Shown one piece after another: positions 13,346 through 16,013 of a stretch of 32,000 nucleotides of DNA. The position numbers and the translations under genes are program-made. Source of the DNA: Aciduliprofundum boonei T469 (lineage in GTDB: Archaea; Thermoplasmatota; Thermoplasmata; Thermoplasmatales; Aciduliprofundaceae); NCBI RefSeq assembly GCF_000025665.1, contig NC_013926.1, forward strand, positions 750,001-782,000, given 5' to 3'. The notes below the pieces were generated by a model. That model made no database searches. It was not told where the DNA came from and worked only from the letters and a program-made list of their open reading frames with translations. Numbering within the stretch: position 1 is the first letter of the stretch; every line of letters starts with the position of its first letter.

Positions 13346-13759
13346 TTACCATCTATTGTTGTAGCTTCTCTTCCTATAGTTGTTGTACCTTCTATTGTAC
13401 TGCCTCTCATGCTCTTCGGCACTCATATCTAACTCTTCATTTATTTCTCCAAGCTCTTCCTCACTCTTCTTTATACTCCCATACTTTCCAACATTCAGGC
13501 GCATGTGCCCGCGCACTAGGGAGATATAGCCATTATCCACATATATTATCTCTCCCTCCTCAATCATATCTGCCTGCTCGTTCCAGAGGGACATTATTAT
13601 GGTTCCTGTCTCATCTCCCACAACGGCTTCAGTCACATGCTTCGTCTCACCATACTTGGTGTTAATCTCTTTTGGCTCTCCCTTATGCAGAACCTTTGCC
13701 AAAACATTAACTCTTTTGGCATTTGGGTTCAAGTCCTTTATTTTGGTTAATTCTTCCAT
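13346..13759 (-). CDS. Single OB-fold nucleic-acid-binding protein (short SSB/RPA-like)
   Basis: The KIKDLNPNAKRVNVLAKVL...TEAVVGDETGTIIMSLWNEQADMIEEGEIIYVDNGYISLVRGHMRLNVGKYGSI pattern is that of the one-OB-fold SSB class (crenarchaeal SSB / SOSS-B-like). A low-complexity tail of about 40 aa follows. Confidence 0.7.
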   Translation of the reverse strand: MEELTKIKDLNPNAKRVNVLAKVLHKGEPKEINTKYGETKHVTEAVVGDETGTIIMSLWNEQADMIEEGEIIYVDNGYISLVRGHMRLNVGKYGSIKKSEEELGEINEELDMSAEEHERQYNRRYNNYRKRSYNNRW

Positions 13760-13880
13760 TTTCTACACTTCCTTTTTCTTTAAGGCTAAAAGCCCAAGCA
13801 CTTTAAATGCTACTTGTATAAAAAACTTCGTATTCAGAAATATATTGACATGTTCTCTCAAGGCATACCAAAAGGGAAAG

Positions 13881-13890
13881 AAATTAAATA
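13881..13890 (+). promoter_or_regulatory. TATA box (AAATTAAATA) with a purine-rich BRE-like upstream stretch, serving the KaiC-like operon
   Basis: It is centred about 29 nt upstream of ATG 13915 and no SD intervenes. This spacing is expected for a leaderless archaeal transcript. Confidence 0.45.
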
Positions 13891-13914
13891 GATGTTGCCA
13901 ATTTAGATACCAGT

Positions 13915-14664
13915 ATGAAAGTAGTCCCACTGGGTATAAAGAACTTGGATGCTTTTCTTCCGGGTATTAGAGAGGAATCTTTAAACCTTATTTACGGTCC
14001 CCCAGGTTCAGGTAAGACAATATTTGCGATGCAGTATCTTGCTAGTGGGGCATTGAAAGGGGAGAGTGTATTGTATATTTCTCTTGACCAGCCAAGCTGG
14101 ATGGTAAAGGAGAATTTTGAGGATTTTGACATATTACTCGATGAAATTTATATTTTTGATGCGGTACCTGTAGTATCCAGTAAAGCTGAAGTCAAGCCAG
14201 TCAGAGAGGTTACACCCATCGCAAAACCTGCAAAGATGAAAAACGCAGAGAAGAGTAAGAAGTTGTTTGAGGCAGATGTTTTATCTTTGCGGGCCACATT
14301 GAAGAATGTGTTTGATAGAATTAAATTTGATAGGATTGTAGTTGATTCCATAACTTCTTTGAGATATTTTTATATGCGAGGCTTAAATCCCAGTGCAGCA
14401 GTGCACGCATTTCTAAATTTTTTAGAGGAAAGCTCTAACAGTGCTGTGATAGTTACTGCGGAGGATTATGATAACCTGCTTCCTGATAAGCCAATGATGG
14501 ATTCTGTGATGCTCTTAAACTCATCAAATAGGAGCTTTGAAATTGTGATAGAGAAAAGCACCGTGCCGTATACTATTGACAAAATACCGCTAACTCTCAC
14601 AAAAAAAGGATTTTCAGTTGACGAAAGATTTTTCATCAAATTCACCAGGAGGAAGGTTAAATGA
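13915..14664 (+). CDS. KaiC/RadB-like RecA-superfamily ATPase, divergent paralog 1
   Basis: Walker A GPPGSGKT and Walker B DRIVVDSITSL are present. The slot of the KaiC catalytic Glu-Glu reads YISLDQ. The C-terminal K-M-R-G motif is degenerate (IEKSTVPY). The stop overlaps the next start (ATGA). Confidence 0.75.
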   Translation: MKVVPLGIKNLDAFLPGIREESLNLIYGPPGSGKTIFAMQYLASGALKGESVLYISLDQPSWMVKENFEDFDILLDEIYIFDAVPVVSSKAEVKPVREVTPIAKPAKMKNAEKSKKLFEADVLSLRATLKNVFDRIKFDRIVVDSITSLRYFYMRGLNPSAAVHAFLNFLEESSNSAVIVTAEDYDNLLPDKPMMDSVMLLNSSNRSFEIVIEKSTVPYTIDKIPLTLTKKGFSVDERFFIKFTRRKVK

Positions 14665-15389
14665 GGGTAAAATTCGGTGTGGCAGGACTCGACAAGATGC
14701 TTGAGGGAGGGCTAATTAAGGGTAATACCTACCTTCTTATGGGTGATACGGGTACTGGTAAAACTATATTATCTGCAAGATTCTTACTTGAAGGACTAAA
14801 TAATGGGGAGAATTGTCTTTACATCTCTGTGGATAAGCACCCATCTTTAGTTCTCCAGAGAATTATGCTTGGATTTGGCTGGAATCTTAGCAGATTGCGT
14901 GTTATGGATGCTGTTCCAGTTGAGTTGCTCTATTCCACATCTCCATCTATAAAAGATATAACTGCAAAAGGGGAGATTAGAGCCGCTTATGAGGATTCGA
15001 GAAAATCAAAGGGAGGAGGCCTTAGTGTTGAGGCCCTGATCATAAAGGTAAACCAAGAACTTAAAAAGGGTAAGATAGATAGAGTAGTGTTGGACTCTCT
15101 TACCGTGTTCAAGAATTTTGCCGTTGAAGAGAGTCGATCTTTGCTAAGTATTCATAGGTTATTCACATTTTTCCAGAATATTGGAGCAACGACCATAATA
15201 ACCGCATCTGATAAGATGAATTTGTATGCTGAGATTCTCCTTAGTTCTGGAGTGATAAAACTGGAGAAGAATCCAAGCAATAGCGGGGAAGAGAGGTACA
15301 TCCGGATTTTGAAAATGCGTGGCTCTGGGTATGATCCAAGGGCCAAGAGGATGTATATAACTGAAGACGGGGTATTTGTTTTAAGATGA
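14661..15389 (+). CDS. KaiC/RadB-like RecA-superfamily ATPase, paralog 2
   Basis: Walker A GDTGTGKT and Walker B DRVVLDSLTVF are present. The Glu-Glu slot reads YISVDK. The KaiC-like C-terminus is canonical (RYIRILKMRGSGYDPRAKRMYITEDGVFVL). SD AGGAGG (14647-14652) lies inside the upstream gene. Confidence 0.8.
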   Translation: MRVKFGVAGLDKMLEGGLIKGNTYLLMGDTGTGKTILSARFLLEGLNNGENCLYISVDKHPSLVLQRIMLGFGWNLSRLRVMDAVPVELLYSTSPSIKDITAKGEIRAAYEDSRKSKGGGLSVEALIIKVNQELKKGKIDRVVLDSLTVFKNFAVEESRSLLSIHRLFTFFQNIGATTIITASDKMNLYAEILLSSGVIKLEKNPSNSGEERYIRILKMRGSGYDPRAKRMYITEDGVFVLR

Positions 15390-15422
15390 AATTTTATATA
15401 CTCCAAAATTTATAATGTTTTG

Positions 15423-15818
15423 ATGGGCTATGAAATCCCCAAGGAGGACGAAGTCAAAGAGATACTGCTTAAAATTATGAAGAGAAGGGGTATAATTGAG
15501 TCTCAAGCAGAGTTGCATAGGGAGGTAGTAAAACATCTTAAAAGAAGGAACAAGGATTATAAATTGAGTGAAAAAAGAATGAGAATAATCGCCCTTGCCA
15601 CAGGTAAGGTTAGGATAGAAATAAGGTACAAACTTACAGATAAAATCATAGAAAGTATGGATAAGTGCCCAGTGTGCGGTGGGGATATGGTGAGAATAGA
15701 GAATTCAACTCTTGATGGAGAGAATGTTATTATAGGGTTCAAATGCACCAAGTGCCCTTACTGGACAGGAAGGAATTTGAGGGTTCCCATAAGGTACATA
15801 TTTCGTTACAGGGGTTAA
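15423..15818 (+). CDS. Hypothetical protein with a helical N-domain and a C-terminal CxxC...CxxC zinc ribbon
   Basis: CPVCGGDMVRIENSTLDGENVIIGFKCTKCPYW provides four Cys in ribbon spacing. The N-terminal half is basic and helical. I recognise no family. ATG 15423 is preferred over TTG 15420. Confidence 0.55.
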   Translation: MGYEIPKEDEVKEILLKIMKRRGIIESQAELHREVVKHLKRRNKDYKLSEKRMRIIALATGKVRIEIRYKLTDKIIESMDKCPVCGGDMVRIENSTLDGENVIIGFKCTKCPYWTGRNLRVPIRYIFRYRG

Positions 15819-16013
15819 TTATACCCATGTTGCTCGCTCCAACTCTCTATCTTTCTTTGTTTTCTTTTTGAATTCCTTATAATGCCTTTTGCAAAGATGT
15901 ACCTTTGTGCTTTTTCCGCCTTTGAGATTGAAAATTTTTTCTGCCTTCTTTCTGGATACCGTTTTAACTGCTACTTCATCGCATCCTACAACATCACATG
16001 TTTTCTCGCTCAT
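15819..16013 (-). CDS. Small basic zinc-finger-like protein (C-x4-C ... C-x2-H)
   Basis: In the 64 aa, CDVVGC...HLCKRHYKEFKKKTKKDRELE gives putative C2CH ligands and a Lys-rich tail. A TATA-like TATAATAATT (16033-16042) lies about 25 nt upstream. The gene sits divergent from rps6e. Confidence 0.5.
   Translation of the reverse strand: MSEKTCDVVGCDEVAVKTVSRKKAEKIFNLKGGKSTKVHLCKRHYKEFKKKTKKDRELERATWV

Follow-up and report, generated by a model that had tools for sequence, protein, structure and literature searches.

A translationally coupled pair of divergent KaiC-like ATPase genes beside a convergent pair of zinc-protein genes in Aciduliprofundum boonei T469

Introduction

KaiC-like ATPases are abundant in archaea and almost untested. 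In haloarchaea, GvpD is a P-loop protein of the KaiC superfamily which regulates the transcription activator GvpE. A passage in PMC5847659, citing Makarova et al. 2017, presents the archaeal KaiC-like ATPases as proposed signalling hubs of which inactivated forms are known, and in Sulfolobus the KaiC-like aRadC forms hexamers with a DNA-stimulated ATPase that bind RadA and Hjc and serve as recombination accessories (PMC4080772). Here we describe two KaiC-like ATPase genes in a 32,000-nt stretch of the Aciduliprofundum boonei T469 genome (contig NC_013926.1, positions 750,001 to 782,000 of the forward strand; the whole stretch is hereafter called the window), which lie between a gene for an SSB and a convergent pair of genes for zinc proteins of 131 and 64 amino acids (aa). 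An initial annotation of the window had proposed that the five genes work together. Our comparison with related genomes and metagenomes leads us to a different reading, to which we give about even credence: the locus consists of three adjacent units, namely the SSB gene, the ATPase pair and the zinc pair, of which the last two are regulatorily coupled in the DHVE2 clade. This reading draws on the persistence of a four-gene block whose flanks have repeatedly been rearranged, and on the company that the 131-aa gene keeps in other lineages.

Results

Gene organisation of the locus

The five genes are arranged as follows, with positions counted from the first letter of the window.

13346-13759, minus strand: SSB, 137 aa, a single OB-fold with matches to PF21473 and NF005049
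13915-14664, plus strand: ATPase 1, 249 aa, a divergent single-domain KaiC-like P-loop protein
14661-15389, plus strand: ATPase 2, 242 aa, single-domain and KaiC-like, better conserved than ATPase 1
15423-15818, plus strand: 131-aa zinc-ribbon protein, a winged helix followed by a C4 zinc ribbon
15819-16013, minus strand: 64-aa C2CH protein, very basic, the convergent partner of the 131-aa gene

All five open reading frames (ORFs) are genuine genes and not chance ORFs, because conserved homologues exist for each; in the alignments of the 131-aa and 64-aa proteins the Cys and His metal ligands are invariant. The architecture described in the initial annotation was found again in every detail. 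The divergent gap between the SSB gene and ATPase 1 (13760-13914) is exactly 155 nt long when read from the sequence; the two ATPase genes share an ATGA overlap at 14661-14664, with an AGGAGG at 14647-14652, 8 nt 5' of the second ATG; and the stop codons of the zinc genes abut (TAA at 15816-15818 for the 131-aa gene, reverse-strand TAA at 15819-15821 for the 64-aa gene). In L001, one of the compared relatives and metagenome loci that we label L001-L211, the stop codons of the zinc genes overlap by 4 nt. Homologues place the start of the 131-aa gene at the ATG at 15423, one codon downstream of the TTG at 15420 given by the ORF finder. Searches of the window for Rfam families and tRNAs found none. 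A defence or phage origin of the locus was considered and rejected, since PADLOC and PHROGs gave generic P-loop or DnaB-like matches only.

The ATPase pair

Both ATPases match PF06745 well above its cut-off of 26.6 bits (84.6 bits for ATPase 1, 138.8 bits for ATPase 2) and share with the archaeal single-domain KaiC-like ATPases (for example PH0186/PH0284 of Pyrococcus and SSO2452/aRadC of Sulfolobus) a RecA-superfamily domain with Walker A and B motifs. These motifs read GPPGSGKT and RIVVDS in ATPase 1, which ends in a basic tail (RRKVK), and GDTGTGKT and RVVLDS in ATPase 2, and they are conserved across both families (a 19-sequence alignment for ATPase 1 and the family alignment for ATPase 2). 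ATPase 2 aligns over its full length with the archaeal single-domain proteins and retains the K-x-R-G motif.

The pair differs from these proteins in several respects. Where KaiC has its catalytic FEE, ATPase 1 carries LDQ (LDE in some relatives) in a profile alignment to KaiC, and ATPase 2 carries VDK (VD(K/R) across its family) in a residue-level alignment to KaiC structures; the Glu-Glu that is thus replaced by Asp-Gln and Asp-Lys follows strand 2, and we take it to be E77/E78 of the KaiC CI domain. The K-x-R-G motif, which presumably carries the arginine finger of KaiC, is kept in ATPase 2 alone, as KMRGS (K(M/L)RGS in the family), and the aligned position in ATPase 1 reads VEKS. An insertion led by DAVP is common to both ATPases and sets them apart from the archaeal KaiC-like proteins, as does the obligate tandem of overlapping genes. 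The two ATPases are 29% identical to each other (72 bits), and ATPase 2 is the best match of ATPase 1 anywhere; given this and the shared insertion, ATPase 1 is best understood as a fast-evolving duplicate. The orthologues of ATPase 1 in L007 (2394-3404) and L016 (8001-8723 onward) are about 336 aa long, with an extended Glu/Lys-rich C terminus ending in a poly-Lys/Arg tail that exaggerates the short RRKVK tail of the window protein.

Both ATPases fall far below the NCBIfam cut-offs of the curated archaeal KaiC subfamilies (TIGR03877, TIGR03878, TIGR03880 and TIGR03881); the best score is 100.6 bits for ATPase 2 against TIGR03880, with a cut-off of 249, and ATPase 1 reaches at most 53 bits. 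The scores also place the pair outside RadB and ArlH. RadB (TIGR02237) was rejected since ATPase 1 scores 26.4 bits and ATPase 2 scores 19.9 (cut-off 172.4), and ArlH/FlaH (NF052589) at 17 and 35.3 bits (cut-off 215), the locus also being without the context of an archaellum operon (the scanned neighbours are PheT, SLOG, SSB, S6e and aIF2-gamma). Matches to GvpD_P-loop are weak for both proteins, at about 20 bits and below the 24-bit cut-off. The best PDB matches are to KaiC itself (E 1.6e-30 for ATPase 2). As in cyanobacterial KaiC, with its fused CI and CII, two paralogous KaiC domains are made together, here from two coupled genes; unlike cyanobacterial KaiC, the ATPases are unfused and without the catalytic glutamates, and nothing points to a clock (KaiA and KaiB families had no match among the window neighbours scanned). 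We conclude that the two proteins form a paired, catalytically unusual KaiC-like subfamily that we regard as new, although the kind of protein is itself known.

Conservation of the neighbourhood

Among named relatives, Aciduliprofundum sp. MAR08-339 is the closest, with an ATPase 1 that is 76% identical. A genome scan at species level gave Aciduliprofundum and metagenome-assembled DHVE2 genomes, which puts the window in the DHVE2 clade of the Thermoplasmatota. The five genes are contiguous in the closest relatives (L001-L004, L009 and L010), but these are uninformative on linkage, as their synteny covers the entire stretch from PheT to aIF2-gamma. Across the DHVE2 clade, the order ATPase 1, ATPase 2, 131-aa gene and convergent 64-aa gene is intact in all 12 of the DHVE2 loci with enough sequence, and the block of four is kept across at least three flank contexts, with both flanks rearranged, down to 57% identity in ATPase 1. 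The initial annotation had named conservation of the neighbourhood in related genomes as a test: the neighbourhood of five does not persist, and the sub-block of four persists within one clade, DHVE2.

Each pair is also found by itself. The ATPase pair occurs without the zinc genes in L007, L008 and L016, at 46-48% identity, with the two genes overlapping or one nucleotide apart; an overlap, or a gap of at most 3 nt, is kept in L001, L005, L006, L007 and L008. The earlier description of the ATPases as unequal, translationally coupled KaiC-like paralogues is borne out, the coupling being kept down to 46% identity. Looser tandem pairs of KaiC-like genes, at 30-36% identity, are present in metagenome-assembled genomes of soil Thermoplasmata and of Methanomassiliicoccales. 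A DNA-pattern scan of metagenomes added 120 further loci with the 131-aa gene, and at none of these scanned loci does the ATPase pair adjoin it.

A homologue of the 64-aa gene is present in 36 of the 134 loci with a 131-aa gene, always on the opposite strand and one to four genes downstream. These 36 loci make up two clades, DHVE2 and a high-GC clade, between which the 131-aa proteins are 31-46% identical, and in the high-GC clade the two zinc genes are convergent without adjacent ATPases. The association of the 131-aa and 64-aa genes is older than their association with the ATPases, since the convergent pair recurs in this distant, ATPase-less clade. The zinc proteins had been taken as members of the ATPase module; they are better described as an older pair, with each of the two pairs also occurring without the other.

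In other lineages the 131-aa gene has different same-strand neighbours. Two four-CBS proteins in tandem, with a gap of some 40 nt, take this place in 38 loci of the CBS-type lineage (for example L157, 7536-8309); in the group of L089, L138 and L140 the neighbour is a double-ACT protein (L089, 6457-7383); and elsewhere (L091, 6393-7797) the 131-aa gene lies beside genes for an RMMBL-type metallo-beta-lactamase-fold protein and a PCC/DUF296 protein. The Methanomassiliicoccales-like L089 (8343-10618), L090, L138 and L140 also carry, 2-3 kb downstream of the 131-aa gene, three same-strand genes for an HTH_20 protein, a 520-543-aa GvpD-like double P-loop protein and a 221-225-aa KaiC-like protein (DUF7504), which is a second, looser co-occurrence of the 131-aa gene with KaiC-superfamily ATPases.

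Promoters and a candidate operator

Four elements outside the coding sequences bear on how the four genes may be expressed.

13850-13866, no strand assigned: candidate operator, a pseudo-palindrome ATG-N11-CAT just 5' of the BRE/TATA of ATPase 1
13883-13890, plus strand: TATA-like box of the ATPase operon, ATTAAATA, with its centre about 28 nt ahead of the start codon (ATG at 13915)
15393-15400, plus strand: TATA box of the 131-aa gene, TTTATATA, starting 4 nt after the ATPase 2 stop, with its centre about 27 nt ahead of the start codon (ATG at 15423)
16034-16042, minus strand: candidate TATA-like box of the 64-aa gene, ATTATTATA in the minus-strand reading, about 25 nt before the ATG

The TATA columns of the ATPase operon are near-invariant in an alignment of 12 upstream regions, and their spacing implies a transcript that would be leaderless or nearly so. 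Ahead of the 131-aa gene, TTATATA is invariant in 13 of 13 DHVE2 loci, and a BRE/TATA-like element stands about 27 nt before the start in every context type, including the unrelated CBS-type and high-GC ones. With a conserved TATA box of its own, the 131-aa gene should not be read as just the third member of an operon. The initial annotation had drawn one plus-strand unit of three genes; its gene order stands, and what the promoters imply is a likely two-gene operon followed by an independently promoted 131-aa gene with an essentially leaderless transcript. Upstream of the 64-aa gene, ATTATTA is common to the Aciduliprofundum-like loci and to L005, L011 and L013.

The pseudo-palindrome has the clade consensus cATGCTTT-N3-AAAGCATg and keeps the same register in all 12 of the DHVE2-clade loci, whatever the upstream gene (the position in the window is matched in L001, L003, L005, L006 and L009-L015). 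In the window it is degenerate and becomes apparent only from the 12-locus alignment; a strict search of the window for ATGC-N2-9-GCAT gave no match at the ATPase promoter. We take it for a candidate operator.

The two zinc proteins

The AlphaFold2 model of the 131-aa protein (pLDDT 93, pTM 0.79) has a winged helix, in which a wing accompanies helices 8-22, 28-42 and 50-59, and then a four-stranded sheet with two Cys knuckles. The ligands of the zinc ribbon are C82, C85, C108 and C111, and the C terminus carries the motif CPYWTG...P-x-RY-x-F. In helices 2 and 3, a 17-sequence alignment shows no variation at S27, R52 and R54 and hardly any at Q28, which fits a DNA-reading helix-turn-helix. Foldseek against the PDB returned winged-helix domains only (cullin WHB, Cdc6 and TFIIIC), at probabilities of 0.8-0.9 and root-mean-square deviations of 2-4 Å over about 60 residues but with E>0.2; neither the 131-aa nor the 64-aa protein had a significant match (E<=0.001).

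A profile of the 131-aa family, which has at least 267 cluster representatives (profile search, E<=1e-3), matches TFIIE-alpha, across the end of its winged helix and its zinc ribbon, and the RPA12 ribbon (E 3e-4 to 2e-3). The likeness to TFE/TFIIE-alpha lies in the order of a winged helix and then a C4 zinc ribbon, the family profile aligning with TFIIE-alpha residues 97-164 at E 4e-4 to 2e-3; unlike TFE/TFIIE-alpha, the 131-aa protein is shorter and has its own C-terminal motif, and the window protein has no match to PF02002 at E<=1. When 61 family members were compared with Pfam, only generic zinc-ribbon families recurred, all at weak E-values, and the 25 families listed as matched most often do not include PF02002. 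The names 'PIN domain' (Mut7-C/COG1656, JGI) and 'Nob1' given to homologues were rejected, the N-terminal domain being a winged helix with no PIN or Mut7-C match in Pfam; these names probably stem from similarity in the zinc ribbon.

The model of the 64-aa protein (AlphaFold2, pLDDT 82) consists of short hairpins and then a long basic C-terminal helix at 42-62. Its ligands are C6, C11, C41 and H44 in a 23-sequence alignment; H39 is replaced in the distant homologue of L091, which leaves C2CH. The THAP signature is C-X2-4-C-X35-50-C-X2-H, and a THAP-type finger was rejected for the 64-aa protein, the spacing of which is C-X4-C-X29-C-X2-H and which has no Pfam or fold match. The initial annotation could place neither small zinc protein in a family, and indeed no family of Pfam or NCBIfam is matched above cut-off by the 131-aa window protein or by the 64-aa protein. 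Both probably bind nucleic acid, and the 131-aa protein may bind DNA.

The SSB gene

The SSB matches PF21473 (E 1.9e-18) and, over its full length (1-137), the NF005049 equivalog (238.6 bits, cut-off 188), as a crenarchaeal-type single-OB SSB. The only notable difference from that type is in the tail. Tails of crenarchaeal-type SSBs are usually acidic, whereas the C-terminal 25 or so residues here (13346-13420), with the tail EEHERQYNRRYNNYRKRSYNNRW, are rich in Arg, Asn and Tyr and are not acidic.

The initial annotation had seen the SSB as a partner of the ATPases, and this is not supported by the distribution of the genes. The SSB gene adjoins the ATPases only in Aciduliprofundum-level loci, yet it stays beside the SLOG and PheT genes in L001-L005, L009, L010 and L013, even where the adjacency to the ATPases is lost. 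In L005 and L013, where ATPase 1 is 58-60% identical, the PheT-SLOG-SSB trio is intact and two inserted ABC permease genes leave the SSB about 3.6 kb from the ATPases; no SSB gene was found within the available sequence of L006, L011, L014 and L015. Because the adjacency is lost in L005, L006, L011 and L013-L015 while PheT-SLOG-SSB persists, we regard the SSB as an ordinary housekeeping gene of the PheT-SLOG-SSB block and not as a member of the ATPase cassette; among the associations at the locus, that of the SSB gene with the ATPases is the youngest and the weakest. The SLOG/TIGR00725 gene (12836-13303, minus strand; PF18306, with a weak DprA-like match) is co-directional with the SSB gene and 42 nt from it, and this SLOG-SSB pair is the better candidate, if anything here concerns the loading of proteins onto single-stranded DNA.

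Other features of the window

The stretch at 18415-23289 has a G+C content of 0.47-0.50, compared with about 0.39 elsewhere in the window, and encodes MobA-like, NuoE-like and NuoF-like proteins together with a 906-aa molybdopterin protein resembling formate dehydrogenase; in the syntenic L001 a single 310-aa gene lies between the genes that flank it here. It is possibly an acquired island. At 5876-6706 and 6867-11180 a DDE transposase (PF01609) adjoins a 1437-aa protein, whose counterparts in relatives (1422-1429 aa) carry SBP_bac_5 and Ig-like domains. Directly after the aIF2-gamma gene, at 17722-18306 on the minus strand, a 194-aa protein without a Pfam or NCBIfam family is 77-96% identical in all close relatives.

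Discussion

The results allow us to propose how the ATPase pair and the zinc pair may work together. ATPase 1 and ATPase 2, made from a coupled operon, would assemble into a mixed KaiC-like ring, in effect a split KaiC; their pairing is obligate, their translation is coupled and they have lost complementary motifs, which leads us to infer such a heteromer and to consider it plausible. With Asp-X in place of Glu-Glu in both proteins and the arginine motif in ATPase 2 only, the ring should turn over ATP slowly and asymmetrically, and it would bind ATP and act as a nucleotide-state switch rather than as a motor or a recombinase. The 131-aa and 64-aa proteins would form a nucleic-acid-binding pair, each expressed from its own promoter, and the ATPase ring would control the winged-helix protein in the way that GvpD controls GvpE. 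The comparison is one of pure analogy, for an ATPase that controls an adjacent DNA-binding protein, and it differs in that no gas-vesicle genes are present here. A relation between a sensor and a DNA-binding output is attractive because the neighbours of the 131-aa gene in other lineages are stand-alone ligand-binding regulators (four-CBS and double-ACT proteins). Regulatory coupling seems the likeliest reason why the block stayed together in DHVE2, and the link to the winged-helix protein is plausible by this analogy.

Several observations weigh against coupling of the two pairs. Both pairs are found independently elsewhere and a separate promoter serves the 131-aa gene, so that the four-gene block could reflect inherited synteny. 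It could also be held together by tight packing alone, with a promoter 4 nt past a stop codon and two stop codons that abut or overlap. The 12 DHVE2 loci are one clade and hence not independent, and each of the context types likewise amounts to about one clade. Neither zinc gene was found within about 8 kb of any of 73 other KaiC-like loci, and among the roughly 120 metagenomic loci with the 131-aa gene, KaiC-superfamily genes are present in a few only, at a distance of 2-8 kb (L089/L090, L110, L138 and L140). No palindrome resembling the ATPase operator was found upstream of the zinc genes. Finally, Asp sometimes works as a catalytic base, which makes the slow ATPase a guess.

Much of this evidence would fit an explanation in which the ATPase pair and the zinc pair have been mere neighbours since the DHVE2 ancestor, kept together by packing that leaves no neutral breakpoint. 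Each unit does occur without the other in related lineages, the TATA box of the 131-aa gene and the abutting (in L001, overlapping) stop codons leave little room between the genes, and no operator common to the ATPase and zinc genes was seen. We nevertheless hold it to be somewhat unlikely, as the flanks have been rearranged repeatedly and the block is unbroken in every one of the 12 loci, down to the most divergent ATPase 1, and as the 131-aa gene again lies beside stand-alone ligand-binding proteins in other lineages.

A further possibility is that the 131-aa protein is a general transcription factor, a paralogue resembling TFE/TFIIE-alpha, and the 64-aa protein a basic protein associated with chromatin or RNA, neither of them tied to the ATPases. 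The architecture of the 131-aa protein is that of TFE/TFIIE-alpha (family profile E 4e-4), a strongly conserved C-terminal motif runs through its broad family, and it is found in housekeeping neighbourhoods; moreover, the 64-aa protein is conserved to the same degree as the SSB (88% and 85% identity in L005, where ATPase 1 is at 58%). Such a role is decidedly unlikely in our view, given the missing PF02002 match at E<=1, the PDB matches that rest largely on the Cys knuckles, and the absence of TFE/TFIIE from the top Foldseek matches.

We judge it very unlikely that the ATPases are aRadC-type RadA paralogues that aid homologous recombination, with or without the SSB. Precedent exists in the Sulfolobus aRadC hexamers with their DNA-stimulated ATPase and their contacts to RadA and Hjc (PMC4080772), SSO2452 (2w0m) is a match of ATPase 2 (E 2.4e-14), and the SSB is adjacent in this genome. 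However, single KaiC CI domains, Pyrococcus KaiC-like proteins and SSO2452 all lie at about the same distance from ATPase 2 (57-68 bits), the first two matching it about equally well or better; the RadB scores reach only 20-26 bits where 172 is the cut-off; neither ATPase has kept Glu-Glu; and the adjacency of the SSB is not conserved, nor is any recombination gene consistently nearby. That all five genes form a single recombination-mediator or DNA-damage-signalling module, as the initial annotation had suggested, would accord with their contiguity here and in L001-L004, L009 and L010 but is scarcely credible, since those relatives are syntenic from PheT to aIF2-gamma and their agreement carries no weight, the SSB separates in distant genomes, the two pairs likewise come apart, and no evidence at the locus favours such a role.

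Regulatory coupling of the ATPase pair with the zinc pair in DHVE2 is thus the reading that we carry forward, and it can be extended, in a form that we regard as unlikely, to the Thermoplasmatota as a whole. The 131-aa protein would be the constant DNA-binding output of split sensor-regulators whose sensor is swapped by lineage (the split-KaiC pair in DHVE2, the four-CBS pair or the double-ACT protein), with the 64-aa protein as a co-factor; the nucleotide state of the ATPases would gate the binding of the 131-aa protein to the palindrome at the ATPase promoter and close a feedback loop.

The locus also serves as a caution, in that contiguity in close relatives says little: the link to the SSB is gone one taxonomic step out. 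The 131-aa and 64-aa families need a Pfam or NCBIfam model, as their association recurs across lineages. For the archaeal KaiC-like ATPases, which have been proposed as signalling hubs, the pair of A. boonei offers a compact, obligately paired and catalytically asymmetric example beside a candidate DNA-binding output.

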